From: Nemertoderma westbladi
Taxonomy: Eukaryota > Animalia > Xenacoelomorpha
Assembly (NCBI GenBank): GCA_032718475.1
Contig: JAUCBJ010002351.1
Location: 1 to 40,669, forward strand
DNA: 40,669 nucleotides
Reading direction: 5' to 3'
Shown: piece after piece, positions 2 through 40,669 of the stretch
How positions within the stretch are numbered: position 1 is the first letter of the stretch
How the letters are laid out: every line of letters begins with the position of its first letter
Program-made: the position numbers and the translations under genes
The notes under the pieces: generated by a model
The model's input: only the letters and a program-made list of their open reading frames with translations
What the model was told of the DNA's origin: nothing
The model's database searches: none

Positions 2-492
2 TGTACGCGCTTTTGAAGACCTTTAGCAGTTTAACCTGCCAAAATTTATATGTCTTTTGGTTTATAAATAGACTTTAGAAGACAACACAAAGTATCACAA
101 AAAACAGTAAGACTGAACACTCCTAGTATGATCGGCCGAATATCTACACGTCGACAGAAAAAATCGCTCTGATTGGCTCAAACCAAACAAAGAACCGTGC
201 GTCCAATGGCTGTTTCCATGCCAGCAACCAGCTGCTAGATGTCGCAATCTGAATCATCAATGCCAAGCCGTGTAAAGGTATTTGGTGCATTACGGGTTTT
301 TTGCCTTACCATGTCCGCCAAAGCAGGTATATAGACGAATGACTTTTATGTCCGTTAAAACACCTGTAACGGTACCTTGCGGGCGAGGGGAATATATGTA
401 CAGTTAGAGAACCTTTTAGAGTATTCCAGCGCCTGGGGGGAAACTGGATTGCGAAGCAAAGGGGCCAGTTATATCCCACAGAAGCTTTTACA
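2..492 (-). repeat. 3' LTR of element 1 (lacks a 769-bp segment present in the 5' LTR)
   Basis: 2..82 = 7851..7931 and 83..492 = 8701..9110; two substitutions seen by eye. Confidence 0.95.
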
Positions 493-500
493 CCGCTCCC
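493..500 (-). other. Polypurine tract of element 1
   Basis: Minus strand GGGAGCGG immediately before the TG of the 3' LTR. Confidence 0.75.
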
Positions 501-3650: not shown

Positions 3651-6600
3651 TTACGTTATGGAGTCCCTAGATATTTGTCGGATTAGGGAAGTGGTCGTAG
3701 GAAGAGTATCTTGCCTTCCATAGTTTCCGGACAGTTTTTGGTCTCTTTCCAGTAAACATAAACGACTAGCTGGGTGATTGAGTTGTTGTGTTACTTTCTC
3801 CGCTCCCTTGACCTGTCTAATCTCCGCCGGGGTAAGATGAGGAGGCCATTGTTCTTCTTCTTTACTTAAGAAGTCGGATCCACCTAACCAGCCTGGAGTA
3901 TCTATCAGTTCTTGAGGAGTTGCTCCTCTGGAAGCGATGTCGGCTGGATTAATCGTCCCAAGGCAATGTCTCCATTGATCTACATTGGAGTTAATATCGT
4001 CATTATCTGAGGAGTATGGTGTTCCCTCAGTTGGATCGTCCACATCACTGCTCTCCACTTCCCATTCCTTTACTTGGTATACCTGTTGTTGAGGTAATCT
4101 CTCTTTGAGAGTTCTACGGGAAGGGCCAGTGAAGTACCAACCTACTCTAGTTCTTACCGCATAGGTTTGTAGTGGCTGCGGTTGAGCAGGCCGATTCTCC
4201 AATGTCTCGAGAGCCTCATGCGCCTTTTGGCCGATGAGTATTTGCACTCCAGGATAATCTGTCTGGAATCGAGGTATCTTAAGATGTTGGATGCTCTCAT
4301 CCTCGTCCCAATTAAAAAGGTCTGCTTGGGTAGTAGCGAAGTTCTTTATAGCCACCATTTTTACCGACCTTATACCTTGTGCTCCTAATTTATCCTGGGG
4401 GGTGGACAACACACCTACATAGTAATCTGCCATTAGGGTAGATTTCCAAACCTGCATAATTCCTAACATATTCAATTTAGTCCGGAATTTGGGTTGTCCA
4501 GCAAAGATATCTTCGGCTAGTTCTTGATCGATGAATGTTCCTGTGCTGCCGGAGTCAAGGAGGGCGTTCACTATGTAACTTTTGTTAGGACCATGAACTC
4601 TTACCTGCACTACAGGAAATTCTCTGATTCCTACGTTGGAAGTTGGAGCTTTCCAAGATGGTTGTCTGGCAAAAGTAGTTGGGGGGAACTCATTGTCGGT
4701 GTCCTTTTCATAAGTAAGTGCTCGATACACTGCGGTATTGATTAGATAACAGGATTCGTTGGCGTCGGAGAATTCGTCAGTATAGAATCCTTCCATCTCA
4801 GATTCTTGATCAGTGTCGTTTACATCACTGAATTGGACATGTAGTTCGGGCTCACTTACCTGACTCAGTTTGTCTCGATCGAACTCACTGTGTAACAAGA
4901 TGTGATGTTTCGCGCCACACTTTGTACACTTTATGTCGGAGTAACAGGTTCGCCATTGGTGTCCTGGTCTGAGGCAATTATAGCATAACCGCTTATCCCA
5001 TACGAATGCACGTCTGTCTACAAGGGATTTCTTTAGAAATTCAGCACACGCACTCAAACGGTGGGTCCCGTCGCACAGCGCACAGTTAGGTTTTATGTTA
5101 CTCACTTTACCTTGGGTAACTTGATGCACTCTCGTTTTTTCTTCAGGTTTTCTTCGGTGTATTCTGTTAGGAGACTGAGGAGGGGTCTTGGCAGCCTGTT
5201 CTCTCCTATCGTTGTTTCGAGCCTTGTATTTACTTACGTCTTTTGAGGTTTTGTCAACATAGTAAGATCGATCTGTGTCTTTCCCGCTGTCCTCTTCTTG
5301 AGAGGCTTGGCTTTCGCCGTCGTCAGTGTAACATACCGGTGTTACTCTTCTCCTAGAAGCGGGTTTTTCACTTACCTTATTTTCCGATGTTTTCTCTCTG
5401 GACTGCTTGATGAGTTGTAGTTTTACTTCACCATCTAAGAAGGACATGAGATCAGCTATGGTAGGACTTCGTCGTTGTTGTTCATTCATGTACAACACTT
5501 TCTTGTCCCAGCGTGTACATACTCCACCCTTTGGTAAAGTAGAGACTACGGCTCCAATAACCATGGAACTCTGATATTCATGCGACTTACCTAACCAGTC
5601 CAATTGTCTACAGATCTCTTGAATCTCATCGGAAAACTCTATAATCCCACTACTAAGGAAGTGTCGGGGGGCTACTAATTTTGCATACAAATACTTAGCT
5701 ATGTTATCCTAGTTACCATACCTGATGTTTAATGTATCCCATACTTGTCTTAATCCTTCTGGATGTCCAATAAACTTTAACGCCATTAACCTGGGAGGTC
5801 CTTCCAAGCACTTGATGAGGAACCTAAGTTTCTCTCCGTTAGATAGTACAGAGTTTTGTATGCTATCTTTGTAATATTCGTTGAAAGGTAACCATTTCAT
5901 CTCATCTCCATTGAATTTGACGATCTCTCCCACTTTGACCGCTTGGCGGGCTTCTGTTCTAGCCATCTGACGCGTAAAGCTTTCTTGGGCCATCGTGTTA
6001 TTTAATATCGAATTATCGGTATATAAATTTCTCGGATCATTGTCAGGTCTATAAGGGATATCATTAATAACAGGTCTATAATCACCCTTAATAGGGTTTG
6101 CTATAGGAGTTTCTACTTCACTAGCAGTATAGATGCGTGTAGGCTCCACACCTTGCGCATGTAATACTTCAGACCTAACAGGTTGACACAATTTTACAGG
6201 GGGTATCGGTATTCCCTTTTGGATATTGACTAATTTGTCGCGTTCTAGCGCGATACTTTGCTGCACTTCTTGCAATTCGGCCCTACTTTCCCTTACTGTT
6301 CCCTTAAGTTGGTAGACAGTCTCCTGCATCTGTCCGAGCAGGAGATTCATCCCCCGCCGTCCCTCTTCTACCCACTCGACCGCCGAAGCGGGAGTCGCCA
6401 ACATTGTAGCGGGCTGACGTGGGAGGACGGGAGACAAATCTTTGATTTCTCTCTCAGCTTCCAGGACAGGGATATTCTCATGGACTGTTCTACCGGGCAC
6501 AGGCAGTGTAGTACTGTGTAAAGGGAATTTAGAGTTAAGCTCTGGAAGTACAGGGGTCTCTAACACAGGAGTGACTTTGGGAACGACAGGCCTAATTATT

Positions 6601-6704
6601 TCAGGCTCATCAACTATAGTAGGAAGTTTTTTGACCTTAATAATTTGGTCTGTAGGTTCTATACTACTTAAGTCTGTGCTAGCTAGTCTGTCACCAGTCT
6701 TGTC
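3651..6704 (-). pseudogene. gag: Gag-protease with in-frame deletions of RT, most of RNase H and integrase
   Basis: ORFs 5709..6566 and 3651..5690 are one frame with a single TAG at 5709-5711 (RYGN*DNIAKYLYAK); the frame stays open upstream to 6704. After protease the sequence jumps to NVDQWRH..NPADIASRG (about 3990), then to HPASRLCLLE (about 3780). No YxDD or DDE motif. Confidence 0.9.
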
Positions 6705-6837
6705 CTACGCCAAGCAGCCCGTGTAGTACCGGGGTTAATTTAACTATAACGGTATGTGTAACAAACACAATTACTGTAGGAATAAACTTGGGGACATGAA
6801 TGTTGCGAATAATCGCATAAACTCTGAACAATAAATA

Positions 6838-7355
6838 TTACGCTACCCGTACAGAATACTCAAACAAATACAAACCAAACGCTGGCAGACTACCACCAAG
6901 CCTAAATAAACTACCGTACGTGTAGATTCCGAAATGGTTAGTTAGTATGCGTTCTAACACGGTAGTACGACTTATTCTTTAAGAGGGGATTGACCTTACA
7001 GCTATGGCTGCCCCAACTTACTAACTGGCACTTTATCAGACAAACTCTACACACGCAGCAATCTCTTCAGACCTAATAATAGCTAGACAACAATCCAGCC
7101 TACAAAATATCTGAGTAATAACTATTACGGTACCCGAACAGACCACACAAACAAACACAGGCCAAAACGCTGGCAGAATACTGTCAAGCCTAAATAAACT
7201 ACAGTATGTGCAGATTCCAAAATGGTTAGTTAGTATGCGTTCTAACACGGTAGTACGACTTATTCTTTAAGAGGGGATTGACCTTACAGCTATGGCTGCC
7301 CCAACTTACTAACTGGCACTCTATCGGACAAACTCTACACACGCCGCAATCTCTC
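6838..7355. repeat. Tandem duplication (period about 288 bp) in the element 1 leader
   Basis: GGTAGTACGACTTATTCTTTAAGAGGGG... at 6961 and 7249 with near-identical flanks. Confidence 0.9.
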
Positions 7356-7658
7356 CAAACTCAACAACAATCTGACAACAGTCCGGCCTACAATTATCTG
7401 AACAATCTGAGCAGACTTACACGTCTTCAGCTCAATATTAACTTACATGTAAATAAAACCGACAGAAATAAGTAAAATCTCAATAAAAAACCAGGGCTGC
7501 AGTCCCTGATTAAATATCAATATTAACTTACTAGGAAATAAAACTGACAGAAATAGACCTAAGTAAAATCCCAATAAAAACCAGGCGTCCCCGATTTAAT
7601 ATTGAGACCTACCGGTATACAATAATCAAAATCGAATAATACTAATGTACTTATACTG

Positions 7659-7784
7659 GAAGTACCGGTTAGGACAGTTGGGCCTACGGACCTACAGAAG
7701 TACCGGTTCTGACAGTTGGACCTACGGACCTACAGCAGTACCGGTTCTGGCAGTTGGGCCTACGGACCTACAGAAGTACCGGTT
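7659..7784. repeat. 38-bp minisatellite, about 3.3 copies, in the element 1 leader
   Basis: Unit GAAGTACCGGTT(CT/AG)GACAGTTGGGCCTACGGACCTACA. Confidence 0.9.
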
Positions 7785-7839
7785 CAGGTTTACCGGTCGA
7801 CCGGTACTTTCAACTTTGTTGCTGACTGCAATAAAGTCA

Positions 7840-7850
7840 ATAACTGTTAT
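7840..7850 (-). promoter_or_regulatory. Non-tRNA PBS position of element 1, complementary to LTR site 8602..8612 (candidate self-priming)
   Basis: Minus strand ATAACAGTTAT directly after LTR ...TACA with no TGG; exact 11-nt reverse complement at 8602..8612. Confidence 0.65.
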
Positions 7851-9110
7851 TGTACGCGCTTTTGAAGACCTTTAGCAGTTTAACCTGCCAAAATTTATAT
7901 GTCTTTTGGTTTATAAATAGACTTTAGAAGATTACAAATATTTAATACCAATAAACACAACATTAGCAGAAGCCAGCCTAGTGCGCGTCCATTCACCCGC
8001 TGGATATACCCGGGAGACTGGATTCTGAGGGCTTAGATTATTATTGCAGTGTAAGCTTACTGTATTGTATTATTCGATTGATCGTTAATAAATAATTTCT
8101 GACTAATATTATTCACTTTCGGGAAATATTAACAGTTCCTTTAGGACGTGGCGCTCTATCTAGGTAAACAGAGATATGACTTATACTAATCACAACGGTA
8201 AGTCGGTAAGGCTTATGATTCACGTATGAGGCGCATTCTTTAGGAAATGCTTAGTTATCAATCACAATCAGGCACACTACCGGTAACACACAATACTGCT
8301 CACTATTTGCCGACCGTCAATGAATTTTATCATATATAAAGAGAACAGCAACGGACCAATGTAGTGCTTATCAAATAGCATCAAATTCACTACATACACA
8401 ATAATATAAGTCGCAATCGCTGTATATAACCCGTCTCTCTAACCTGTAGTGTATCAAGAAAATTGGGAAATTTGGGTTCTTTATATATGTTCTCCAAATA
8501 ATATTCAACCAAAACACAACAGTAAATAGCAGTATAATAATGTATGTTGAACCGATAATGCAAGAATAGAAACAAGTTGATATGAATTGATATATGATGT
8601 GATAACAGTTATACGCTCTATAATTTAAGCCTACTAATGTTTCTTCTAAAGTATGAAAACTAATTGACTCTAGAGCCAGTGTTCCTGGCCTAGATAGCAA
8701 CAACACAAAGTATCACAAAAAACAGTAAGACTGAACACTCCTAGTATGATCGGCCGAATATCTACACGTCGACAGAAAAAATCGCTCTGATTGGCTCAAA
8801 CCAAACAAAGAACCGTGCGTCCAATGGCTGTTTCCATGCCAGCAACCAGCTGCTAGATGTCGCAATCTGAATCATCAAGGCCAAGCCGTGTAAAGGTATT
8901 TGGTGAATTACGGGTTTTTTGCCTTACCATGTCCGCCAAAGCAGGTATATAGACGAATGACTTTTATGTCCGTTAAAACACCTGTAACGGTACCTTGCGG
9001 GCGAGGGGAATATATGTACAGTTAGAGAACCTTTTAGAGTATTCCAGCGCCTGGGGGGAAACTGGATTGCGAAGCAAAGGGGCCAGTTATATCCCACAGA
9101 AGCTTTTACA
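7851..9110 (-). repeat. 5' LTR of element 1 (1260 bp)
   Basis: TGTACG...TTTACA, matching both segments of the 3' LTR. Confidence 0.95.
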
Positions 9111-12217: not shown

Positions 12218-12649
12218 CTTAAGGTCCGATTATTTAGAGTAGCAGTAGTTCCAGTACTCCTTTATGGGAATCCATGCTGGGCTTAACTACTGAGGGCACC
12301 AAATCTCTGATTGGCACATTCACAAGAATGATACACCGGGTTCACTGTGTCAAGTACAATGCACACATCTCCAACCAGACAGTATATAACATTGGAGGTG
12401 ACTCTTTGGTTCCCCAAGCTTGACACTAGAGCAAAGCCGCCTCCGCTTTGCAGGACATTGCTTTTGCCGTGAGGACCAGCCAGTGCATAATCTTGTGCCA
12501 GTGCAGCCCATGACTTTCTTGAGACGCATCTTAAAGGACACTGGCCTTGAAGATGCGATGATATAGCAAATGTCATGGGTGATAGGGAGTTGTGGCGGCG
12601 CAATTTTGTTGACAAGCTGGCACAGCATTCTTAAAAATGCAGCTGCAAT
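12218..12649 (+). mobile_element. RTE-type LINE 3' fragment (decayed)
   Basis: High similarity to the reverse complement of 20865..21320 and to 22842..23130 (LRFAGHC.RREDQPVH motif; ends CAGCATTCTTAAAAATGCAGCTGCAAT). Confidence 0.85.
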
Positions 12650-18036: not shown

Positions 18037-20165
18037 GATTCCCCGTACTTAGTTCCAATTTAAGCTTCATGCGAATTTAGTTCCAATGGAAGCGAATTTA
18101 GTTCCAATTTAGGCGAACTTAGTTCCAATAACTGGAGAAAAACGAAAACTAATTTAGTTCCAATGGATGCGAATTTAGTTCCAATGGATGTGAATTTAGC
18201 TCCAATGGATGCGAACTTAGTTCCAATGCATGCGAATTTAGTTCCAATGGATGCGAATTTAGTTCCAATGGAAGCGAATTTAGTTCCAAAGAGGCGAGCC
18301 ACGTAGTTGGCGAAGAATCTGTTTAATGACACTATTAAGAGGCTGGTTAAACAATAATTGTAAATAACTAACCCAAAACGCCCAACGGTATACAGACGTT
18401 TCGGCCTAGGACGTTTCGGTCCAGGACGTTTCGGCCTGGACATTTCGGCCCGGACGATTCGGTCCGGACGTTTCGGCCCATGACGGTAACCGAATGAAAA
18501 GGCCAACTTGTTTGATATGATAATAATTATTCATTAAAATTATAATTATTTCACAATAACATACAAACACTTAATAAAATATCTTTCATGAAATGGCTAT
18601 TTAATTTACTTTTATTTCAAAATAAAATAAACATTAGGGAAGTGGTGCTCTGGTTCCATAGACAATTCGCCATCAATTATGTTATGCGGCCGAAAAAATG
18701 CAAGTCAGAACAAAACTTTTGGTCTCGAGTGCCACATTGCTAATATACAGTACTACTAAAGTGAATCAATTTCAAGAACCATTTAGGGCTTAAATCTCGT
18801 CTGATCGATATATTTTGGAGATACTTCATTAACTTTAAACATTACTCAATTGATAATTCTTGTAGCTGGACAGTGTATTGCAGCTATGTCTTAATGATCT
18901 GCTGAAACAATAACTATCATCTTCGATGATAGATGATTTATACCCGTCGATTTATACGCATACATTTCATCTAAATTTAAATTTAATACGCATATATTTT
19001 ATCTCATTCCATATGACATCCAGTCTGTCTCATAATTATTAGCAATGCCCCTTTAATGGAATATTTCTTATCTATTATATTTTTAAGACCAACATTAAAA
19101 TACAGTAATTTTAATTCGGTGTATTTTAATGTACTTTATTTATTGACTCACATTTTAAAATACGTATGTTTTTTTTATGGGGGAAAGCCCATCATCATAA
19201 CTCTAAAGTTAATTTGTCAGCATGTTATCTTTGTTCTAAGTTACAGTATGGTGTAAATTTATATTAATAAATAATAAGTTATTATTTATATATATAAGAA
19301 CTTCGATCTTGACGACTTTCAAACAGGTGTCGGAGCAGTTCCTACTGACAACTCCTCTTGTAACGAACGTAACAACTACAAAACAAATATATTGAATAAC
19401 TTATTATTAATAGCTTATTTAAGGGAGTAAATTTAATCTTTGGGCCAAAACGTCCGACAAGCAAATCTTGTATTTCATTCATTGGGCCGAAACGTCCTAG
19501 GCCAAAACGTCTTAGACCGAAACGTCTGTTACCCACGCCCAACCTCCTAACGAAAACAATCTTATCCCAAACAACGCCCAAGCTCATAACCAAAACTACG
19601 CCCAACCTCCTAACCCAAACAACGCCCATCCACCTAAACCGAAACAACTAGTAAATATTGTATTTGTTGTGATAAATGGCACAATGTGCATGACTTGAGT
19701 ATATAATACTACAGACTCAGTCAGTCAGTATCAGTACACTCGTCATTAATATATAATTCAAAATGTGTAATTATACATTTAATAATAATTCGTTTTTTAA
19801 AAATGACGGAACGGTTTTACAATTATTTACAATTATTGTTGACCCTGACCCACCCCAAATATTGACAATACGCAATATGCTTCGCCTACTACGTAGCTAT
19901 CCCCACGATTGAAACTTTGAAACTAAGTTCGTACCCATTGGAACTAAATTCGCTTCCATTGGAACTAACTTCGTATGCATTGGAACTAAATTCGCATGTC
20001 GCATCCATTGGAACTAAGTTCGTTTTGATATTCTGGGATTGAAACTAAGTTCGCCTCGATTGGAACTAAGTTCGCTTTGTAAAATTTATTTTGGAACTAA
20101 ATTCGTTTCAATTGGAACTAAGTTCGCCTTTGAAAATGTGCGATTGGAACTAAGTTTGTGCTACC
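18037..20165. mobile_element. Foldback/Mutator-like non-autonomous element with 21-bp subterminal tandem repeats
   Basis: 9-bp TSD GGGACCTCG (18028-36, 20166-74); GCGAATTTAGTTCCAATGGAT array at about 18048-18290, inverted at about 19910-20155. Confidence 0.85.
18387..19534. mobile_element. Mutator-like non-autonomous element with GACGTTTCGGCC subterminal repeats
   Basis: 9-bp TSD ACGCCCAAC (18378-86, 19535-43); ends GGTATACAGACGTTTCGG...CCGAAACGTCTGTTACCC. Confidence 0.9.
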
Positions 20166-20864: not shown

Positions 20865-21858
20865 TTAAGAATGCTGTGCCGGCACAAATTTGCACCGCCA
20901 CAACTCACTATCACCCATGACATTTGCTAGATCATCCGCATCTCCAAGGCCAGTGTCCTTTTTAAGATGCGTCTCAAGAAAGTCATGGGCTGTACAGTCC
21001 AGATCCACTAGGCTTATTCACTCCATGAGGCCGCCAAAGCACAAGATTATGCACTGGCTGGTCCTCACGGCGAAAGCAATGTTCTGAAAATCGGAGGCGA
21101 CTTTGTTCTAGTGTCAAGCTTGAGGGAACCAATGAGACACCTCCAATGTTATATAGTGTTTGGTTGACGAAGTGTGCATTGTACTTGACACAATGAACCC
21201 GACGTAGCATTCTTGTGAATGTGCCATCCAGAGAATTGGTGTCCTCAGCAGTTAGAGCCCAGCATGGACTCCCGTAGAGGAGTACTGGAACTACTGCTGC
21301 TCTAAATAATCGGACCTTAAGTTTCCGATTAATTCTCGGTGAATTCCCAATCCTGGAAAGCCTATTCAAGGCTGCCCATGCCTTTCCCTTACGAATTCGA
21401 AGGTCCTCACCTGACTTCCGAATCCATGATCCTAGGTAACAGAAGTCGTCCACATGCTCAACCATACCATCCTTTGCGCTTATTATGCTCATCCGGTCAG
21501 AGACTTGCTGAGGACTTTCAAAGTTAACTGTGAAAATTGTGTTCTTTTTGGAGTTAACAAAAAGACCAACACTAGAAGCAGCCTGTTCTAATGAACTGAG
21601 GAGCCGTTGGGCTCCCTCTAGTGATTCTGAGAGTACTCCTAAGTCATCAGCAAAGTCTAGATCAGTTAGGTACTTGGCAGGATTTCCTCGACTTCTGGAG
21701 CCAGTAGGTGGAGTTATCATCACCCCATCATCATTATGATGATCTAGATCCAAGGACATGCGTAGAACATAGTCAACCACAATTATGAACGAGAATGGCG
21801 CAAGTGTGTTTCCTTGGAGGACGCCCCATAACACTTCAAATGGTTCTGTATCACCGTT
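20865..21858 (-). pseudogene. RTE-clade reverse transcriptase, C-terminal half
   Basis: GVLQGNTLAPF.FIIVVD, LDFADD, FCYLGS, LLYG..CW, LRF..HC motifs; frameshift near the 3' end. Confidence 0.9.
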
Positions 21859-21884
21859 AAGCACGTCAACGGGGATTGAACCAC

Positions 21885-21926
21885 CGCTATACGTACGTTT
21901 CGGCCTATCAGGCCTCATCAGTAGCG
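21885..21926 (-). ncRNA. Type I minimal hammerhead ribozyme
   Basis: Minus strand CGCTA-CTGATGA-GGCC-TGATA-GGCC-GAAA-CGTACG-TA-TAGCG: full core, stem I CGCTA/TAGCG, 4-bp stem II, palindromic short stem III, GUA cleavage triplet. Confidence 0.88.
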
Positions 21927-22841
21927 CTGTCCAGTTCAGCCACTTGCCCCTTACATTCACTCTCTAATCCACTTCCAGGCAATCTTAAGTTGCATATATA
22001 TTTTCTGTAATAATCATCGGATCGTGTAATGTTAAATAAACGAATTTCCTTTCAACAATTTAAATATGGTGGAAAGTTTCCATAGCAACAGACACTCTTT
22101 ACTGCCTCTTAGGCTACATTCTGTGGGATGTTTGAACATAAACATACGTTAGATAGAGATCCGCGCAGTTGTAAATAGTTCTATGGCTGTAAATAATCTA
22201 TGCCAAGTTATCAAAATAGCATTAAAAACAAGAAAACAAATTATAAATTGTAATAATATCCTTTAATCTATTCAATATTATATACTACATCAATAATAAA
22301 AAACTATTTCCAACCACAATAGACCTTCTGCAACCACAAATGCAATATGTTTCCATTGAAACATTAACAATAAATATATGATGTAGGCCTACTTAATATC
22401 ATCACGTCATATTAAACTTTTAAACGTTTTCACATTGGGAAAAGGTGTATTTTATTTCACAGCATTTTTGAATGAGAAAAAATAACAAAATTATCAAATT
22501 AAAATTGAATTTGAATGAAATCATTATATTCCGAACAGAATGAGCCCAAAACCAGCAACCTACGATTTAAACTCGCGAAGTTATGGCCAAAAAGAAGCTG
22601 CTGCCTAATTTAAGAATATAGACTTTAGTTGGAGTGCTAATAATAATAAAAATAAACATACTGTAGTTATAAAGTTAAACAATAATTTTTCTTCCTCGAG
22701 TTGTATAGTGTATGATGGAATTGTTTTAGTTTATTGTAGTAGCGACAGAATACTTAAAGGTTTGCATAGGCCTACTTGTACTAGTAATTCCTCTAAGTCA
22801 CTAACATATTGTTTCAACATATCTGTGCTGATTATCTGTGC

Positions 22842-23164
22842 TGGAGGTGTCTCATTGGTTCCCCCAAGCTTGACACTAGAACAAAATCGCCTCCGCTTTG
22901 CAGGACATTGCTTTCGCCGTGAGGACCAGCCAGTGCATAATCTTGTACTTTGGCAGCCTCATGGAGTGAATAAGCATGGTGGACAGCCCATGACTTTCTT
23001 GAGACGCATCTTAAAGGACACTGGCCTTGAAGATGCGGATGATCTAGCAAATGTCATGGGTGATAGGGAGTTGTGGCGGTGCAATTTTGTTGACAAGCCG
23101 GCACAGCATTCTTAAAAATGCAGCTGCAATGCAGCATGCCGATCCTAGTAGTAGTAGTAGTAGT
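22842..23164 (+). mobile_element. RTE-type LINE 3' end with (TAG)n tail
   Basis: Same family as the copies at 12218 and 20865; RLRFAGHCFRREDQPVHNLVLWQP...DRELWR; TAGTAG tail. Confidence 0.9.
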
Positions 23165-27803: not shown

Positions 27804-29593
27804 TGTCACGGTGACTACCTCATACAGTCATATATGCCAGTACTGCAGTACGCAGATATGGCAGTATGGAGGAAGCCGTTTAGAAAGTTTCAATATAAAA
27901 AAACGCCGAAAGGGACGAACCGCAATCTTATATATAAAATACTTTCTTGGTCCCCGAGCCAGACCAGTCAGTCGTTATGCTGGGCCCTTCTGTCAGCTAT
28001 GTTCTCTTTTTAATAAGAGAATTGACACTGTCTATCTAATTATGAATTAATTACCTTACTATAAAATGTGTATAAAATGTGCTCTGCATATGCCAACCCA
28101 ACCCAAAGTCCACCCCGATTGGCCCACCCAAAGTCAGAAAGTCGCCCAAATACAGAAATGTCCACCCTGATTAGCCCACCCAAACAGCCAAAGTCTGAAA
28201 GTTGTAAGAGATAAATAATGAATAACGTGAATAGCGTACGCTCCAGGCAGCCAGGACGGTAGAAAGGTGCCAGGATCTGAGGCTGGACAGGTTTATCCGA
28301 TTATATGAGTAATCTGGTCGTTAGATAGTTCGGTAGTTAATCGTAAAATCTCCTAAAAAATCAGAACATTCACCAGCACTAACTCTGACTATGATTAAGA
28401 CAAGCTGACAAGGTCTGTACCGCTGTACCGGTAACAGTATACAGTATGTTCCGCAGTTACTGATTCCAAGCCTGTACAGTGCCAGCTGTCCTGTCTCTTT
28501 TTTGGGCTTACATTTTTGAGGCCTCAGAAACCAGCTAGTCCCAACCGCCGGGCGTACGCAATACCGCTCTCCTAATTTTTTCATATAATATAACAAATTA
28601 GCACAAATAGTACGCCCATTTGCCTCTAAAACTAAAAAACCTTCATGGGCAATAAATCAATAAACTAAATAATATTACACTTTAATCGTATTAGAGTTTG
28701 TATAGTGTATATATAGAGTACATCCAATATACCTCCAATGAGGTGAGAGAAAATAAAACGTACAGTAGGACTCGATCATTGACCGCGGACCTGAGCATTA
28801 TTGGTCGCAAAAGAGTTCTGAAGTTATCGCAATATCAATGAGCTGGTTTAGAGGACTAAATAATCAATCGTTGGAGAACCAGTGATGCAGAAATCGAAAG
28901 ACGAGCACCAAAGTCGAGCCGCAGTCATTAGAGAACCCTGATCAAATCTATTATCTAAATAATATTTTTCGTAACTGATAGCGATAATATTCGCCATTGT
29001 GATATCTTCTGCTTGTCATATTAATCGGTAGATGAGCGTCTCTGGTAGATAATTCAGTATTTACCGCTCATATTATAATTAATTTTTCTTCATTCCGTTT
29101 ATGAAAACCTTTGCTGGGTTTATTTCCATAAGTGATGATACAATGTCAATAGGAGTTAAAATCATCAGGACTACTTCGAATTTGGCACAGCCTCGGAGAT
29201 GATAATATTTTTCGTACCCAGGATATTATGTAATCCATAATCCTTCCAAATCACCCCCCACAACCCGACCAACTGCATCCCACATCCCATATAATGCAAA
29301 CCAAACCGCACCCCACATCCCATATAATACAAACCTAACCCTAGAGCTCATTTTCCTTTTCGAGTGGGTTTTTTTTATTTATTTTTTTTTATTATTGTAC
29401 TTTCGGTTTATAAAATTACGAAAACCGAATGAAAAATATTACCCGAGGACAAAAAAAGTGTTTTTTGGGAGTTCTGAGCATATTTTTAATTTAATTAAAA
29501 TACTTTATTCATTCTCAAAAATAAATTTTATTTCAGAACTCAAAATAATGCGGCATTTATAAGGTAGCAAAAAATAAAAAATATTTTTAATTA
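27804..29593 (-). repeat. 3' LTR of element 2 (right boundary inferred)
   Basis: Starts TGTCACGG; the first 504 bp are confirmed by the other LTR. Right end inferred from PPT-like GAGAGCGG (minus, 29594-29601), similar to the element 1 PPT, though no terminal CA is present. Confidence 0.55.
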
Positions 29594-32500
29594 CCGCTCT
29601 CATGCACATTTACGTTCTGTGGTGTGTTGTGCAACGCCATTTCTGAGTCTTGTTCTAGGAGGCAGAGTTTGCGAATAGGACGTTCTAGAACCTGACCAGA
29701 GGGTACCTTTAATAACACACTTCGCACAAGTCCATCTTTGCCGATTTTTGGCTCAATAACCTGAGCAATTTTCCAATTTTTGCGAGATATCAGTGGTTCA
29801 TGAATCAAAACTAAATCTCCAGTTTTAACATTCTCTACTCTGCTGAACCATTTTGTACGCAGTTGTTGACTGGGTAGATAGATAATACTGCAGCCAAATC
29901 CGCCAGAATGTATTTGTTAAAAGTTGCAAAGTTTTCCACATGCGTTTTGAGTTGATGTCTCCATCGTCAATCTCGCTGATAGGTACCATTGTGGCTCTCT
30001 TTGTATACAAAAATGTGCCGGTGTAAGTGCTTCCACACATTCAGGTGAGTGTGACATCTTTGTTAAAGGTCTCGAGTTTAATACACACTCAACTTCACAG
30101 AACAATGTCCGCATAGCCTCATCATCGAGGTATGTGTAGTTTAATTCAGCAGGCAATATCTTATATAAGGATCTCTTGACACTTTGGACTAATCGCTCAT
30201 AAGTGCCACCATACCATGGTGAATATGGTGGTGTGAAGTCCCAGTCTATAAATTGGATCTGATAGTCCTTCAATGTTTCTTCGACTAAAACATTATTCCA
30301 ACCTTCAATTGACTTAGATATCTCTTTGTTAGATGCAACAAAGTTGCCACCATTATCAGACGTTATAGATTTTGGTGTACCTCGTCTGGTGATGAATCGC
30401 CGTAAAGCCAGTAAGAAAGAGTCCATATTAGCGTGAAACATTAGATCGATATGAATGGCACGAGTTGTCATACAGACCATTAAAATGCCCCATCGTTTGA
30501 TTATTGATCTCGCGCGTTTGACCTCAATTGGTCCGAACATATCAATCCCACAATTTGTGAATGCAGGTTCAAAAATGGCAAAACGGGTTTCTGGTAAATC
30601 TGCCATCTGTTGTTGCATGAGTGGTGCATTAAAGCGTTGACATGGTAAGCAAAATTTCATGACATTTTGTAATGTTCTCCAGGGGTAGATGAGGTAATAA
30701 TGTTGTCGTAAATGAGCTAATATGTGATCTCGCCCTGCATGGTTAAGATCCAGGTGGGTATCATAGATCAACTGTTGCAATAACAATGGCTCTCTGATGA
30801 GTATTGGATGAATTGTGTTTTGTGATACTGGAGCAAATGTTAAGCGAGTTTTAACTTTAACAAGTCCATCTATCATGGTGGTATTGTATTTAGATGGTTT
30901 GATTGGTTTATCATGTTGGTGTTGGGAATATAGATTATCATCAGACAGCACTTGAGAGAGACGCAAACGTTGTTTGAGAGTCACTGAACGTTCTTCTGCA
31001 GTAATTGGTTGCAGAAAATGTTCTGGGATTGTGGTCACATCCTGGGCTTTCTTCCAACATCTCCAATGTGTGTATCTCTTAATTCGACATGGCTCATCTA
31101 TTGTTTCTCGTAGAGACTTATTGTTCCTCAAAACATCTTCAAGCCAAGGACTCAAACCCCTAGAGATATCTGGAAAATTTGCATCTGTCGGTTGCTTCTG
31201 GTATTGTTCATTGACTACTGCAACCACCTCAGTTAATCCTTGCTCTTTATAGGACTGATTAACACTATATTTATTACCTTTAATTAAAAGTTTTGATCGT
31301 TTTGGTTGTGGTTTAGATGGTATGGTCTCCGCTCTCGCAGGGAGCTGTAGATCCTGAAGAGGTTCAGGCCAATACTCTGCTGTCTTAGAAAGAAAGTCAG
31401 GGCCATTCCACCATACCCTGTTGTTGATTATCTCATCAGCATAAGCTCCACGTGATGTGAGATCTGCAGGATTGTTGACACCTGGTACATGAAACCACTG
31501 CTCTACTTGGGTGAATTTAAAAATATGATTCACTCGATTGGTAACATAAACACATAGTTTATGTTTTTGATTATGTAGGTATTGAATTACAAGTGATGCA
31601 TCTGTCCAATAGAATAAGTGCAATTGTATAGTGAGTTCCTTAGAGATCATTCTAGACAGGTCTACACCCATAACTGCAGACTGCAATTCTGCGCGTGGTG
31701 TCATTAGTCCCTTGGTTGGCATCACACGGGATTTCGATGCCGCAAATGCAACCTGTATATTAGAAGGGGATGCTTCGAATCGCAAATAAGCCACTGCTCC
31801 CATGCCCTTTGAACTTGCATCAGAAAATATATGCAGTTCCAAAATGTCATGCTTTCGGAGTCCTTTGAAATATGTTCGCTTAATACGTAGTTGTTCAATA
31901 TTCCTGAGATCATTTTCCCATCGTCGCCAATCTTTTTGGAGTTGAATAGGTAGTGGATCATCCCAGTCAAGGTCTTCTTGCCACATTTCTTTAATCAATA
32001 ATTTTGGCAATAATATTACAGGGTTGAGAAATCCTAATGGATCAAAGACCCCAGCAAGTTTTGACAAACATTTACGTTTTGTAGATGAGATCTTCTGTAT
32101 GTCAATCTTCACCTTAAAGTAGAACTCATCTTCCAAGGTTGCCCATCTCATCCCTAAGATTTTAGTGACAGGTAAGGGATCAGAGTCCAGATCAATATCT
32201 GGATTTGCACGTTGATTGGCAGGGAATGATTCAAGAAACTCTTTGCTATTGCTGGCAAATTTGATTAAGTTGAAACCACCCTTCTTCAAGCAACTTTGAA
32301 CTCCGTTGTTTGGTCTTGTTCAGAATCAGCAACATCATCCATATATATGTTGGTTTGAATAGTTTCAATAACTGCAGAATCAAATTGATATTTATTATCT
32401 TCAGCAGTGCTATATATAATACTTTCACAGTTACTTGGTGAAGATATTACACCAAAAGGTTGAGTTGTCATCCAATATTGAGTGGGTTCTCCTTCTAGAG

Positions 32501-34757
32501 ATTCGTCAGGCCACCAGTAATATCGCAGGCTGTCTCTATCTATAGATGGTACTCGAACCTGCAGGAACATACCTTCAATGTCTGCGGTAAAGGCATAATC
32601 AAATTCGCGGAATCTGAATAAAATCCCATGTATCGAATGGAGAAGATTTGGACCAGCCATGTATTCAAAGATGTCTGTATTCAAAGACTGACCACGATAT
32701 TTTGCTCTACAATCAAAAACAACTCTAACCTTTCCAGGTTTGTTTTCATTGGTGACAAAGTGATGAGGCATGAAATAGGATCTTGGTCCGAAATCCAGGG
32801 AATGAGATGGGACAGGTTCAGCAGCTCCAATATTCAAATATTTTGTCATCTGTATATGATACATCGCAAGGTAATCTGGCTTTTGTAAAAGCCGTTTTCT
32901 TAATGATTTAACACGCCGCTTAGCTAAAGACTCATTATTAATTAACTGAGGAGGATCTTGGCGCCATAATAATCCTACTTCATAGTGACCATCAGAGAGT
33001 TTTTTGCGAGTTCGACTCTGGATCTCAATGGATCGCTGTTCTTCAATGGAGAAACCAATATCAGTTTCATGAGGGAGGTAGGCATCTACATCAAGCCAAT
33101 TTCGGATTGTTCTATCTAGTTGGAGGTCTCTTTCAAGATTATGACTTTCATCATTGGATTCATCCTCTGATATGCTGGTAGGACTACTTTCAATTGTTAA
33201 TAAGGATTTAATATCTGCACAAATATCAAACTCTTGACCATTATCATTAAAGATATCATCCAACTCTCGTTGCATGACATTCTCAAAACATTGACAAACA
33301 GATTCATTTGTACTTGACTCAGTAAAGTTAATATGAGTGGTGCTACGTTCCTGCAGAGTCCTATCTGAAGGACCAGAGCAGTACCACCCAAGTGATGTGA
33401 GAGCTGCAAATGGCTTTGTCATCCGGTCTTCCACCATAGGGTCTGCTGGGATGACTTCTAGAATCCTGAAAATTTCAGGGCAATTCTGTCCCAGCAACAT
33501 CATAATTTTAGGATAACTTGAGTTTGGGATAGGAATATTATTATCCTTGACGAAATTATCATCCTTCCAATCATAAGGAATGCCAAGTGAATCAGCTAAT
33601 TCCTCCATATGGATAAACTTTACATTTTTGGCTGTCTGTCCATTAAAACTACTTAGAGCTGGACTTAGGTTAGCCTTAGCTACCACTGTACTAATTTCCT
33701 TACGCCAAGAGACAACTGTCAAGCGAAGTTTTGCAGCAGTGTGATCAGAAAATACCTGGTCGAATATTGTACTATCCAGGAATGAAGATGAACTGCCAGT
33801 GTCAATAAGTGCATGAACAATGCAAGATGACTTGTCGCCAGTGATCTTCAGGGTAAGAATTGGAAATTCACGAACTACTTGGCCCCCTCTGTGAATACGA
33901 CAGATTACAATTGAAGAGGAGTCCGACATTTCACCCTCAGAGTCAAATTCACTTGAATTCATTTTGTCATCATCAGTATCAGAAGAGACTGCATTTACTT
34001 TAGTTTCAAAGTGCTTCTGGTCATTACTTGACATCTCCAGTATATGAAGTATGGTATGATGGCTTCGACCACACTTGCGACATTTATTTTTATTTTTACA
34101 TTGGGATTTCCTGTGCATATTTGATAAGCAATTATAACAAAGACCTTGAACCTTACAATAATCTCTTCGTTGATCTAGTGTCATGGCAAGAAAATGTTCA
34201 CATTTGTATAGGGGGTGTGGTCCTGTACACTGAATACATTTCTGCTCACCTGTAGCTTTGGATTCCTTCTGTTGGTCTTTCAAATTACTCTCCTTAATAT
34301 AATCTTTCTTAGATTGAGGAAGGTTGATTTGCCCAACATTGGCTCTGTTCACTGTTTCGTCATCTTGTCCGGAATCTACAGCAAGGTTAGTTTTCATAGA
34401 CTTTACCTTTCCCTTAGTTGATTGATCATGAGATTCCGAGAAGTAGAGTAAAATCTCAACTTCTTCTTCTAAGAATTGGGAGAAATGTGAGGCTGTGATA
34501 GCTGTATTTGATTATTGGTAGTAACAATGTGTTGGCAAGCTGTATTTTTCGAGGTGTTTGTTATTATACATTTTATTATAAGAAGGGATCTAGGGGGTCT
34601 TAACCTCGAATGATAAGTTTATTTTACCGAAAATAACTTATCTTTTATTGGCGCAATTGTAGGGCTAATCCCATCCATGCATACTTTTTAACCGGGTAGT
34701 GTACAAATTTAGGAATCGCGTAATTTTTCTTGAAATTAATATCTCATATCTCTCCAA

Positions 34758-34800
34758 ACCACGTACGCGTTTCGACCTTACTGGGTCTCATCAGCGTGGT
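34758..34800 (-). ncRNA. Type I minimal hammerhead ribozyme
   Basis: Minus strand ACCACG-CTGATGA-GACC-CAGTAA-GGTC-GAAA-CGCG-TA-CGTGGT: intact core, 6-bp stem I, 4-bp stem II, palindromic ACGCGT stem III, GUA triplet. Confidence 0.92.
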
Positions 34801-34862
34801 GTCGGATTCGAACCTGGGACCTCGAGGCGGAAGCCGAGACTACAACCACTAGGCCACAGGTT
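34798..34862 (-). promoter_or_regulatory. tRNA-derived internal Pol III promoter (A and B boxes) fused to the hammerhead
   Basis: Minus strand TGGCCTAGTGG (A box), CTCGGCTTCCGCCTCGAG (anticodon-arm-like, TCC), GGTTCGAATCC (B box). Confidence 0.8.
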
Positions 34863-37800
34863 CTTGAGATATGGAGTATTAATTTCAAAGACAGCTGCCA
34901 TTTTATTAGCCCCTGATTTTTGATTATTGGTAGTAACAATGTGTTGGCAAGCTGTATTTTTCGAGGTGTTTGTTATTATACATTTTATTATAAGAAGGGA
35001 TCTAGGGGTCTTAACCTCGAATGATAAGTTTATTTTACCGAAAATAACTTATCTTTTATTGGCGCAATTGTAGTTGTATTTGGTATACCATTTCTTTCTA
35101 ACCTCAGCCTTTTCTTATACCATCGCCGACGAATACCAGAGTCTAATTTATTTACAACATCTTTGAGTATCTTTGCATTATCAAGTTGATGTTCCACACC
35201 AAGACGCTTTAATTGTTTGAGGGTTCTGTTAAACTCATCAGCAAATTCTATAACTTTAGAACTAGAAGTTCCTTTTATAGGTTCAATTTTTAACAGTCCT
35301 TCTATAAGTGAGTTCACAATATTTTCATCTTTGCCATAACGTCTTCTTAATTCACCCCAAGCTTGATCAAAACCATCTTCTAAGCCAACAAAGGTTTGAG
35401 CGAGGCAGTGGAGTGCAGTGGAGCATCTTCCAACATTGAACAAAGGTAGTTGTGCTTCTCTTGATCTGAGAGTGGGTAAATTAGTACATTTGTTTTAAAA
35501 TGATGTTGGAAATTTATCCATTCATCGGGGGCGCCAGAAAATTTTATGAATTTTAATTTTGGTAAATTTCTATCCGCTGAAAGACGGCTCATGGCCTGAA
35601 CTATGCTTTCCTCAGCTGCAGACTGATTTGTTCTTTTTTGGGAAAAGTCTAGAAACCCAGGCGTATTGTATTTTCTCCTAGTATCATGTACATCTTGTTC
35701 GATTACGTGTTGGTTAGTTAGTTCTTCTATACGATCAGTCATTTCTTTAGAGTTCTGGCGTACAATATCTTGAACGAATTTCTCGAATTGTGGCGGGATT
35801 GACATAGGATCTGCGTTATTATCTGTGATGATTTTCTGAGTATTTGTATTGTTTGGGCCAATACTGTAGGAAGTTAAATTGGGCAATTCCTGTCGGTGGT
35901 GCGAAGCTAGACGTATTCGTTCCTGTTCAGATTGTTGACGTTGAGCTGCTTGCTGATTTAATTCATTACTCTGTTGAAGAACAGTGGCAGTTAGATGCTC
36001 ATTTTGGATTTGCATATCAGCCATTATCTGTCTTACCTCACTATTAATCAAATGTTGCTGAATATTGCCTGGTCTATTAGTAGGTTGTCGCGGAGATACT
36101 GTATATTGATGGCTATTTCGCAGGCTGTTATATTGCTGAGATGGGACATAGGTAGGATTAACAAATCGATGATTCTGCGGTAGTGTTCCTAAGTTTGAGT
36201 GTGGAATGAGAGGGGCTGAATTTATTGCTGGTTGTTGCTGAACTAACTCAGACATAGGATGATTCAGCTCCAATGAAGGATTTTGAAGATTAGATACAGG
36301 TATACCACCAATTTTCAACTCACTTGAACATTGTCGAGAATCTTTTGCTTCCCCAGCATGGTTCGGAGATGTATAGTTATACGGAAGAATATTTTTATTT
36401 ATTAAAACAATAGGCGATAATGCTCGTGGAGGCTGTTCATTAGATCTAGTCACTGGGACTTTGGAATTCGATCGACTCTGGTCATCTAATCGAGTTGAAG
36501 TGAGGGGGTGAGCTACAACATTATGTCCTGTTTGCAAATTGGCTGCAGAAATGGCGATATCATCAGGAATATTGGGATTTACTTCCAAGTCATTTTCATT
36601 GAGGTCCATGTCATCCTCATCAGATTCCCCAGGCTCATCATCTTGTGACAAATAACGTCGGATAGAGTGTGGCAGTGAAGTCAATGGATGAATACTAGAC
36701 ATCCGCTCATCAATTGGATCTCCAATAGCCTGTGCAGCTTCCCTAGCAGCTCTCCCCAATTTTCTCAACTCTTGTTGTCGAATGGCTAGTTGTTGATCCA
36801 TTTGTAGTTCAAGTTGCTTTCGCTTGAGTTCCTCTTCAATATCCTGCTCCTTTCTTTTTCTCTCCCGTTCCTCTGCTTCGCGGACTAAAGATCTTTTCTT
36901 GGCCTTTGCGTCTATTTTTAGTTTTTCCATTTCAACTCCCTTCTTAAGTAAGTCTATAGCTATTTTTTCATTCTCTTCAAACTGGTGGAATCTGGCTTCC
37001 TTGTATGCTGCATCTTCCGCAAGTCTTCTTCTGTTTTCTGAGATGACAGAAGGGGGTTCGCTGACTTGACTCAGTGAACAGTTTGGGGTTTTTCCAGTGA
37101 GAAGAGTCATACCTCGTGTGCCACAAATCTCAGCTAGTTTATTAGCAATTTCTTTCATACGGACAAGATGTTGTTGTTTTTTGTCTCGGGCTCTATTTAC
37201 AAGAGACTGAAAATTACGGGCTTCTGCCACCATTTTAAAATCTGAGTTAAGTATGAGTAATTTATTTCCCTTAGATTCTAATTCCATATAGATTTGGAAT
37301 ACCTGATCCTCCCGTAATGATTTAAGATTCTCTGGGGTGAGCTTAGAAGTTAAACTGTTGAGATATCGAGTGGAGGAGGCTAGGTATCCTGATAAACTCC
37401 GGCCCAGTCTCTCCTCAGAAGCACAAGCATCAATATCGTATGACCATAGGGGGGAACAAGCATCAAGGACTCGTTGGCGTGACTTATCAGAAAATCGTCT
37501 GACAGCTATGCTCAAGCACTGATTCTCATCTAGGATTGGTAGTAATATGGAAGTTGTATGATCCACTGGAGTAGGTGGTAAAGAAGTGGAAGGATCAAGG
37601 ACTGTTTGATCTCCATCATATTCTCCACTGATTGATGAAGATTCACTTCTAGGAAGTGACTTAGTGCCAGTCGCCATAATATATATTTTTTTTGTTAAAT
37701 TGTTTTTGATCAAATTGGGAAAATATAAGTTGAGTAAATATCATCAAATTATTGAAATTATATTTAAATGGAATGTACTGGTGTCTGAATAGTACAAATA

Positions 37801-38645
37801 CAAATCAATACTGGTACAGTATTAACAGTAAATATTACAGTACACCTTCACTACTACCGGTACTTGTTAATATAATATTAATACTACTATAGGATACTAT
37901 GTTGAAATAAACCAGCAATGTAATTAACACATGTACATGTAACCCTTTTAAATAATCAGGTCCGTTAATACTATACCTCCCTTTTTATATAGGCCTACCG
38001 GTATATGTTGTGTTGTATTATATATAATACATACAACTCTGCATGTATGCCAATAATCATTTAAAATAATTTATGCTTGCTGCTTTATTTATGGTAGGTT
38101 ACCGGTATGGGTAGCCTATGGGACCTACCAGTCTGCCCGTTAAGTACGGTAGGCCTACTCCTCTAGCAGCCTAGAACTGTAGGGTAAAGTAGAAACACAG
38201 AAACAGGATGCAAATAATTGGAATAAAATGATTGACAAACACAAATATATTTAAACTGGGTTGAACTAATAGCAAGTTGGGCATCCCCAAGAGAGCAATC
38301 CCAGAAAGCTAAAACTGTAAAAGTTCACAGGAATCACTTCTCAGACTGAAAAGTCAGAATATGAGCGAAAATATGCGGTCCTGAGGTGGAGCTCGCAAGT
38401 TCGCAGGATTGGTTGTAATTAAACAGTGACGAGCAGTTTAATTTTGAAATAAGGGCAATGTCTGGCCGTATAACAGCAAACCAGCAGTGTCCTGCCCTAC
38501 CGGGCTACCGGTAGGTGAATGCGAGTTCGGAACTTGGCCACATTGACGCAAAGAAGCACAAACCGCACAGGTTGGTTTGAGAACGCCGAATTTTGATTCG
38601 GGCAATCCTCCTCAACCAACTGCAACCTAACCTATAAAGGAAAAG

Positions 38646-38657
38646 GTTCTGATTTTT
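38646..38657 (-). promoter_or_regulatory. Non-tRNA PBS position of element 2, complementary to LTR site 28356..28367 (candidate self-priming)
   Basis: Minus strand after LTR ...GACA reads AT-AAAAATCAGAAC with no TGG; exact 12-nt reverse complement inside the longer LTR copy. Confidence 0.65.
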
Positions 38658-38659
38658 AT

Positions 38660-39163
38660 TGTCACGGTGACTACCTCATACAGTCATATATGCCAGTACT
38701 GCAGTACGCAGATATGGCAGTATGGACGAAGCCGTTTAGAAAGTTTCAATATAAAAAAACGCCGAAAGGGACGAACCGCAATCTTATATATAAAATACTT
38801 TCTTGGTCCCCGAGCCAGACCAGTCAGTCGTTATGCTGGGCCCTTCTGTCAGGTATGTTCTCTTTTTAATAAGAGAATTGACACTGTCTATCTAATTATG
38901 AATTAATTACCTTACTATAAAATGTGTATAAAATGTGCTCTGCATATGCCAACCCAACCCAAAGTCCACCCCGATTGGCCCACCCAAAGTCAGAAAGTCG
39001 CCCAAATACAGAAATGTCCACCCTGATTAGCCCACCCAAACAGCCAAAGTCTGAAAGTTGTAAGAGATAAATAATGAATAACGTGAATAGCGTACGCTCC
39101 AGGCAGCCAGGACGGTAGAAAGGTGCCAGGATCCGAGGCTGGACAGGTTTATCCGATTATATG
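38660..39163 (-). repeat. 5' LTR of element 2, truncated
   Basis: Matches 27804..28307; identity ends abruptly at 39163, where Gypsy RNase H sequence begins. Confidence 0.95.
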
Positions 39164-40010
39164 TAAAGATTATTATTAAACTGATTGTCAACTGTCCGTA
39201 ACTATAACATCAGATGCATCAAAAATTGCCATAGGTGCTGCATTGCACGAAATAAGTTCCGCGGAAGAATCAGTACCAATCGCATTCTATTCTCGAGAAT
39301 TAAGTGACAATGAATCGAATTGGTCAGCTTTTGACCGAGAATTATTAGCAGCATTCCAGGCAACTCGACACTTACGGGATACCTTAGAAGGGCGCCATGT
39401 AATTTTATACACAGATAACAATTGCGATAACACAGATCGAGGCGGACAGTTCGAGTCTGAATTAATGGCTGAAATCTCGAAAATAATCAGCTTCCACTGT
39501 ATGCGTACGACATCATATCATCCACAAGCAAATGGTAAAATCGAAAGATTTCATAGAACACATTTCATAGAGTTTATTCTGAAACAGCACAAACATATTT
39601 CCGAGCTAGACTTCCAAGTTCAGTCCTGTTCAGGCGAACCCCAAATAGTAAAGTCTTATATACAACAAAAACTACAAATTTGTGAACAGGTATTCGTCCG
39701 GATTGACAGAATCCGTAAACCCCTGGAGCACCTTATCAAGGGCCATTCCCAGTCATAACTCGCTCTGACAAAAGCTTCTGCATTCGAACTCCAGTTGGTC
39801 AACAAACTGTATCAATAGAGTGGCTAAAACCATGCAATGTATCGGTGTTTGTGGACAAAGTACCCCATGACAAAAGAGATCATAACTTCAAGGTTAAACA
39901 CGACTTACTAGATTCGACAAACCTTACACCACAAACCATAACTGACACAATTAAAAAAACAATAAAAACTCGTAGTGGTAAGAAAGTACGTTTCTACAAT
40001 AGAGTAGTAA
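39164..40010 (+). pseudogene. pol: Ty3/Gypsy pol remnant (RNase H and integrase pieces with internal deletions)
   Basis: SDASKIAIGAAL, IAFYSR.L...E.NWSAFDRELLA, LYTD, TDRGGQFES, TTSYHPQANGKIERFHR, VFVRID, PYQGPF (frameshifted), TRSGKKVRF. Confidence 0.9.
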
Positions 40011-40071
40011 TAGTACCTGTTTAAAAGTTTCAGTTTAAAAATTATTTGTATAAAGATGCATTCCATTTTTT

Positions 40072-40669
40072 GGTGGAAGGAGTTATGTAGTGCGCGGGAC
40101 ATATGAATGCAGTTATGACAGAAAATATTAAGAGATTCACTCGGCACTGCCATCTTTTCTCAGGCCATTAGGCCTACAGCGTTACAGCAGTCCGTCTGAT
40201 TCAGACACAGACAGTTCTATTATACCAGTACGGTGTAGCGTCATAAATGACCCTGCAGTAGACGACCAGTGTCTGCGCGGTTAATGATTTTGATTACCGT
40301 TGACTGTGAACGACCCAACATGTAGTTGTGCGGTACACAGCCCCAATTACAGCAGGCCATTGTAATAATGTTAATATAATTATTGTCTAGACTACTGTTG
40401 AATTAACTGTGAACGACAAGTTACCGCAACGGTACCGTTGAGTGTGATTGAGCTCTAAGAAAGATAATATGTTAATAAACTGTAATTAGATTTAAATAAA
40501 TGTGGTTAGTGTGGATAAATAACTAAATAGCATGTTAGAGGAAATGTCATGTGAAAGTCACGGTGAATAACACAAAAAAATACCGCTATGTCTATGTCTA
40601 ATACTAATAACACACAAAAAACGTATAAATACTATAATTAAATGATATATTAATTCAGTTAAGAGGGTC
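40072..40669 (+). repeat. PPT and probable 3' LTR of the Gypsy remnant (right end not determined)
   Basis: GGTGGAAGGAGTTA followed by TGTAGTG at 40086, shortly after the integrase end; AATAAA motifs downstream. Confidence 0.6.

Follow-up and report, generated by a model that had tools for sequence, protein, structure and literature searches.

A BEL/Pao retrotransposon without a tRNA-type primer site carries a candidate self-primer in its own LTR

Results and Discussion

Overview

We analysed a stretch of 40,669 nucleotides from Nemertoderma westbladi (GenBank assembly GCA_032718475.1, contig JAUCBJ010002351.1), hereafter the window, which contains on its minus strand a young, non-autonomous BEL/Pao LTR retrotransposon (element 1) without a tRNA-type primer site. 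Reverse transcription of element 1 is likely to be self-primed by an RNA segment derived from its own LTR. The anatomy of the element, the pairing between its LTR and the bases that follow, and the recurrence of such pairing with different letters in a second element of the window (element 2) and in relatives are directly seen, and the polarity of the pairing fits a primer. The primer segment is probably internal to the transcript, unlike the 5'-terminal primer of Tf1.

BEL/Pao elements constitute one of the three big groups of animal LTR retrotransposons. The ICTV describes them as tRNA-primed, with a replication that is poorly understood (PMC8742986). If self-priming is true, BEL/Pao would be the third superfamily with a Tf1-type mechanism, and annotation filters which demand a tRNA site would be expected to miss or mislabel many intact elements.

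Element 1 and its LTR boundary

Alignment of the two LTRs fixes where the 5' LTR of element 1 ends (Table 1). The 11 nt directly after this end, ATAACAGTTAT, are the exact reverse complement of ATAACTGTTAT, located 751 nt from the LTR end, and either 11-mer occurs only once in the window. Among dinucleotide-shuffled versions of the LTR, 12 of 3000 gave a match at least this long that started 0-3 nt past the LTR. TGG is absent from the 101 bases 3' of the 5' LTR, and no tRNA genes are present in the window or in the best 80 of 573 BEL/Pao loci. Both the missing tRNA-type site and the exact self-complement starting at the LTR boundary, as claimed in the initial annotation, are therefore confirmed, and so is its caveat that the 11-mer is AT-rich and near-palindromic: the AU-rich duplex amounts to -10.1 kcal/mol, the 11-mer doubles as a 10/11 direct copy and the site forms a hairpin of its own.

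Table 1. Features of elements 1 and 2, with positions in the window
Feature	Position	Strand	Remark
Element 1 5' LTR, 1260 bp, TG..CA	9110..7851	minus	end set by aligning to 3' LTR
Element 1 3' LTR, 491 bp	492..2	minus	without 769 bp equivalent to 8700..7932, including candidate primer
Element 1 polypurine tract	493..500	minus	
Element 1 frames for gag (DUF1759) and protease, followed by short RNase H-end remnant	3651..6704	minus	
Element 1 primer-binding position, first 11 nt past LTR	7850..7840	minus	no TGG; near-palindromic
Candidate self-primer inside element 1 5' LTR	8612..8602	minus	exact complement of 7850..7840
Promoter-like cluster upstream of candidate self-primer	8827..8729	minus	CCAAT boxes 8827-8821 and 8796-8789, initiator-like 8734-8729; motifs only
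6-bp self-hairpin of near-palindromic site	7838..7852	minus	takes in last CA of LTR; MFE structure
10-nt complement of leader 7834..7825 (leader 17-26)	8050..8041	minus	crosses primer duplex (pseudoknot); chance-level
6-nt complement of LTR end 7859..7854	7988..7983	minus	U5 stem candidate; chance-level
7-nt complement of leader 10-16	8669..8663	minus	2-nt overlap with main duplex; length at chance level
Element 2 internal region	38659..28564	minus	BEL/Pao, complete pol domains in two frames
Element 2 5' LTR remnant	39163..38660	minus	upstream part lost; adjoins gypsy fragment
Element 2 3' LTR	28563..27804	minus	GC/CCAAT cluster 28181-28110, downstream of complement
Element 2 primer-binding position, 12 nt (post-LTR bases 3-14)	38657..38646	minus	begins 2 nt past LTR
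Exact 12-nt complement of 38657..38646, in 3' LTR	28367..28356	minus	part lost from 5' LTR
Element 2 pol in two frames: protease, RT (YMDD), Peptidase_A17/RNase H, integrase	34511..29917	minus	

Element 1 has the TG..CA LTRs and the polypurine tract of BEL/Pao elements. Since its LTRs differ at just 2 of 491 aligned bases, the insertion is young. The RNase H-end remnant comprises 49 residues, and neither core nor motifs of reverse transcriptase (RT) and integrase could be found in element 1, which would consequently depend on enzymes supplied in trans; this lack weighs against self-priming. Among 81 sequences, including the best 80 of 573 loci, its gag/protease region is closest to element 2, at only 27% identity (E 1e-37). 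Ahead of the polypurine tract are two overlapping minus-strand frames of 200 and 176 aa (571-1621), an extra 3' gene where the end of pol would sit; neither has a match in Pfam, in the best 80 of 573 loci or in element 2, and the one of 200 aa has many Cys and His residues and a CCHC-like knuckle. The long leader contains three tandem units of 38 nt in which a palindromic hexamer is frequent (7661-7785) and a 288-bp tandem duplication (6823-7401).

For the 769-bp gap the simplest explanation is that this copy lost part of its 3' LTR or that the assembly is faulty. The matching part is covered by family contigs from public runs, and on this ground we rejected the reading of 7932-8700 as an insertion confined to this 5' LTR; none of the six joints listed in the family contigs reproduces the gap. 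That the site is missing from the 3' LTR of this copy counts against self-priming.

The LTR is matched by 9417 variant contigs in run X1 alone and by thousands overall, which suggests a large family, although contig depth is not a copy count. Variation in the family was followed over 8530-8700 in four runs (three samples), with substitutions listed at a frequency of at least 3%. Out of 21 substitution rows, 17 fall in 8560-8597, none in 8598-8652 and four in 8653-8666. Contigs from all four runs diverge at 8600-8601, and among the rows listed no substitution, indel or joint lies inside 8602-8612. The candidate primer closes a conserved block which is uninterrupted by an intron among these rows. 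The conservation extends over 8598-8652 rather than singling out the 11-mer, and rows are also missing at the ends of 8530-8700. Likewise, among the 40 of 164 substitution rows listed, none falls at 7850-7840 or 8612-8602.

A second element with an LTR complement

Element 2 contains DUF1759, Peptidase_A17, Integrase_H2C2 and the YMDD motif, identifying a BEL/Pao gag/pol in the order PR-RT-RH-IN. Its 3' LTR begins with TA after the polypurine tract, and no TGG is present within 41 nt past its LTR, the first being at +42. The exact 12-nt complement of its post-LTR bases was equalled in 2 of 3000 shuffles, and the site is not palindromic. When leaders and LTRs were swapped between elements 1 and 2, the longest match was 7 nt.

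The GC boxes, the CCAAT box and the TATA of element 2 are all downstream of its complement. Because the promoter-like cluster lies downstream, the site would fall in U3. This arrangement counts against self-priming, as do the TATA-like motifs downstream of the site in element 1, one of which, at 8487-8481, competes with the upstream motifs.

No GT-AG interval in element 2 yields a match of at least 10 nt. A 159-nt GTAAG..AG interval (28353-28511, minus) has the complement 3 nt from its end, and its splicing would delete the site rather than build it. Post-LTR bases 1-7 have, in addition, a 7-nt complement at 27901-27895 (minus), some 30 nt past a TATA-like motif, and a 156-bp direct duplication lies between the gag and pol frames (34507-35073).

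Relatives with intron-split complements

The relatives considered are the best 80 of 573 BEL/Pao loci, from metagenome contigs. A blind search covered the 49 loci with sufficient upstream DNA, and 19 loci with a usable LTR end and LTR sequence were tested beside elements 1 and 2; the others either miss parts or duplicate tested families (L001, L005, L007, L009, L041). For eight loci the LTR end could be derived from comparison of the 5' and 3' LTRs, seven of them without TGG and one (L015) with it.

At these comparison-derived ends, five of the seven non-TGG loci match their own LTR over 11-15 nt, starting 0-3 nt past the LTR. The match is contiguous in L044 (11 nt). In the remaining four it exists only across a canonical GT-AG intron of the form GTAAGT..YAG, with lengths of 164 nt in L002 (11-nt match), 139 nt in L008 (13 nt, the end being shifted by 1 nt to CA), 76 nt in L028 (15 nt) and 77 nt in L055 (12 nt). 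L015, with its TGG site, shows a self-complement of 4 nt. The two misses, L003 and L019, count against self-priming; their LTR copies fray before the end.

Hand-set LTR ends were partly chosen after the blind-search hits and are thus not independent. With such ends L019, L032, L036, L039 and L074 match over 11-13 nt across introns and L006 over 11 nt contiguously, whereas L076 reaches 10 nt and L014, L003 and L079 only 6, 5 and 4 nt, respectively, which again weighs against self-priming. Taking both types of ends together, matches of at least 11 nt are present in 13 of 17 non-TGG elements and in none of the four TGG elements. The opposite LTR strand never gave more than 10 nt in 21 tests.

The initial annotation had named covariation across related families as a check on its proposal, and it is found: differing post-LTR sequences match their own LTRs, while mismatched leader/LTR pairs reach 11 nt in only 3 of 420 cases, two of which involve the related L002 and L008 with a common primer. 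These own-LTR matches support the self-priming part of its suggestion of a self-priming BEL/Pao lineage. A single lineage, however, is too narrow a description, as the matches occur on several tree branches and are often split by an intron.

The same pattern makes a tRNA-derived primer, whether a tRNA half or an internal fragment, unlikely for element 1; in that reading its LTR match would be due to chance or a by-product of the near-palindrome, which would then act as a hairpin or dimer site as in GalEa. Priming by tRNA halves does occur in copia lineages, according to the available text of PMC6317226, the element 1 site makes its own 6-bp hairpin in the MFE fold, and GalEa elements carry a palindromic site at the same position (available text of PMC5445492); moreover, our tRNA search, which found no tRNA genes, covered the window and the best 80 of 573 loci only. 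Yet the positives differ in their post-LTR sequence and each matches its own LTR, and a palindrome does not account for element 2.

Covariation demonstrates pairing rather than priming, and the presumed U3 position of the element 2 site would place it only at the RNA 3' end. Both points would suit a pairing that is real and selected but structural, joining the ends of the genomic RNA (in cyclisation, strand transfer or packaging) or masking the site while another RNA primes. We regard this as unlikely, since every positive duplex ends 0-3 nt from the LTR boundary with the polarity of a primer, no TGG site remains for a tRNA, and the lengths of 11-15 nt agree with the Tf1 primer as given in the accessible part of PMC7175516. 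Self-priming remains our preferred reading of the matches.

L044 has an acceptor-like stretch in its 5' LTR remnant exactly where its 3' LTR has the unsplit complement; this dual state could reflect loss of the intron or a contig that is chimeric. A tree of 41 integrase rows requires at least four changes of the spliced label, which stands beside TGG elements in one weakly supported region. The named BEL/Pao clades are Sinbad, Suzu, Sailor, Dan, Flow, Tas, BEL and Pao; in the tree, element 2 is a long branch without firm placement among unnamed loci, and no order of events follows. Viral contigs yielded no relatives.

On these sequence patterns we see about an even chance that a large part of marine-invertebrate-type BEL/Pao elements has dropped tRNA priming for a self-primer built by splicing across an LTR intron, which would couple reverse transcription with splicing; in this reading elements 1 and 2 are intron-less and bring the primer ready-made, and L044 shows both states. 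If the intron-split form is true, splicing would be one step in making the primer and would offer the host a new point of control.

Further non-TGG post-LTR sequences, with the LTR partly missing, are seen in L018, L027, L030, L037 and L077 (first 230 bases); they were left uncounted, and in both L027 and L077 one half of a suitable junction is present. The 178-bp LTR of L079 (6925-7102) has neither a TGG site nor a self-complement, while the other members of its clade show one.

Donor-like and acceptor-like motifs also occur within the element 1 LTR (8927, 8445, 8060 and 7886, minus), and the 4 bases that follow either acceptor-like site are identical to the 3' portion of the candidate primer. 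A spliced primer for element 1 (GT-AG at 8606-8444, 163 nt, 10-nt match) was set aside as its donor fits only 4 of 9 consensus positions, compared to 6-8 of 9 in the intron-bearing relatives. Two joints in run X4, which we guessed to be RNA, were rejected as splicing, both recurring in a DNA run.

Position of the primer in the transcript

In the strict Tf1 form, a sub-case of self-priming, the transcript of element 1 would start near 8612 and its first 11 nt would be the primer, as the initial annotation had expected. The promoter and splice consensus motifs that we applied are standard ones or those of the cited papers. By these motifs the LTR of element 1 has no TATA box upstream of the site, and the CCAAT and initiator-like motifs would put the start near 8732, some 120 nt upstream of it; the strict form is thus left unsupported. 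Of the seven LTRs examined, six show a poly(A)-type hexamer downstream and three a TATA box upstream of the site. In L028 and L044 the site ends 135-148 nt downstream of the TATA box, which argues against a strict Tf1 arrangement, whereas the 43 nt in L055 favour it; among the three TATA-bearing relatives, only L055 fits a 5'-terminal primer as far as such motifs can tell.

RNA folding bears on the same question. The primer helix forms, with a probability of about 0.45-0.65, solely in folds that run from 8625 or 8612 to 7800, as the strict form would have it. Weighed against the motif positions, we still hold a start at 8612 to be improbable. The helix is absent in the nested folds of six of the eight RNAs, including all four that start at 8732 or 8660, and this counts against self-priming in general. 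Forcing it in the RNA from 8732 costs 2.9 kcal/mol, the site favouring its own hairpin, and blocking the crossing helix fails to restore it in nested folds.

According to the available text of PMC7175516 and PMC10085805, Tf1 priming requires two flanking duplexes. The helices at 8050-8041 (pair probability about 0.85 in five of eight folds) and 7988-7983 (0.62-0.91) flank the element 1 site in a topology like that drawn for Tf1 in the accessible part of PMC10085805, but neither beats shuffles, being equalled in 48/200 and 66/200, respectively, and both were rejected as evidence for self-priming. The two auxiliary pairings of the initial annotation, at 8050-8041 and 8669-8663, are present as described, but do not exceed chance. 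Such flanking duplexes are at chance level in elements 1 and 2, which weighs against self-priming; the downstream flank beat shuffles in only three of 13 elements tested (L074, 0/200; L044, 2/200; L019, 5/200).

Proposed mechanism

If self-priming holds, the route in cis, using the 5' copy, is probably the one taken, the alternatives being the copy at the RNA 3' end or a separate LTR transcript. Transcription would begin upstream of 8612, probably near 8732, and the 8612-8602 segment would anneal to 7850-7840. By analogy with the RNase H cut of Tf1, the RNA would then be cut at the 3' end of the duplex, leaving a 3'-OH that faces the LTR boundary, from which the RT of an autonomous partner could extend into U5. 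Rather than an 11-mer, a capped RNA about 130 nt long would serve as the primer, annealed through its last 11 nt. In many relatives it would form only once the LTR intron is removed, whereas that of element 1 would be unsplit. In the intron-bearing relatives, cDNA from the cut point may transfer to the LTR copy at the 3' end and copy the intron there anew, which would thereby persist; splicing of both LTR copies could yield the unsplit state. The mechanism predicts a defined LTR-derived RNA, often spanning a splice junction, joined to strong-stop cDNA.

Comparison with known systems

Tf1 lacks a tRNA site, and an 11-nt segment of its LTR exactly complements the bases after the 5' LTR (PMC7175516 and PMC10085805, available text). 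The first 11 nt of its RNA serve as primer (same sources) and are released by an RNase H cut between bases 11 and 12 (PMC7175516, available text). Elements 1 and 2 resemble Tf1/Tf2 and the Tf1/sushi group of Ty3/gypsy chromoviruses in lacking a tRNA site and in having an LTR segment that perfectly complements the post-LTR bases. They belong, however, to another superfamily, with BEL/Pao rather than chromovirus pol domains. In element 1, unlike Tf1, the site is probably internal and the flanks are at chance level, and the candidate primer of many relatives, unlike that of Tf1, is split by an intron.

In the available text of PMC6317226, self-priming is described for Tf1/sushi and predicted for the moss Tcn1 clade and for the copia TAR lineage (Houba, Osr-1), so that the switch would have arisen more than once. 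As here, the prediction for TAR and Tcn1 comes from complementarity alone; that text describes no intron-split primer for these plant copia and gypsy elements, unlike our relatives. Fungal GalEa copia elements with their Conserved Hairpin Site likewise lack a PBS (primer-binding site) and have a palindrome at the LTR boundary that includes the last base of the LTR, but their authors, in the accessible part of PMC5445492, found no LTR complement, which is present here.

In the ICTV description, Belpaoviridae carry an 18-nt site that pairs with the 3' end of tRNA-Arg or tRNA-Gly (PMC8742986), while membership of the family rests on pol. Element 2 shares their LTRs, polypurine tract, DUF1759 gag, Peptidase_A17 and PR-RT-RH-IN order, whereas element 1, element 2 and 15 of 19 tested relatives have no such site. 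The terms PBS, primer binding, tRNA and priming do not occur in the main text of two BEL/Pao papers (PMC3118150, PMC554778), and the available portions of PMC5445492, PMC3601003, PMC8220671 and PMC3286476 contain nothing on BEL/Pao self-priming. Our literature search found no report of a self-priming BEL/Pao element; subscription journals, Repbase entries or supplements might hold a prior mention.

Other features of the window

Next to the truncated 5' LTR of element 2 is a gypsy-type fragment on the plus strand (39164-40669) with RT_RNaseH and a polypurine tract near 40072. Three related pieces in mixed orientation (12218-12649, 20865-21963 and 22609-23130), one of which has an RVT_1 match, are fragments of another retroelement. 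Inverted arrays of a 21-nt unit are located at 18044-18297 and 19823-20156, about 1.7 kb apart, and are possibly the ends of a foldback-type element.
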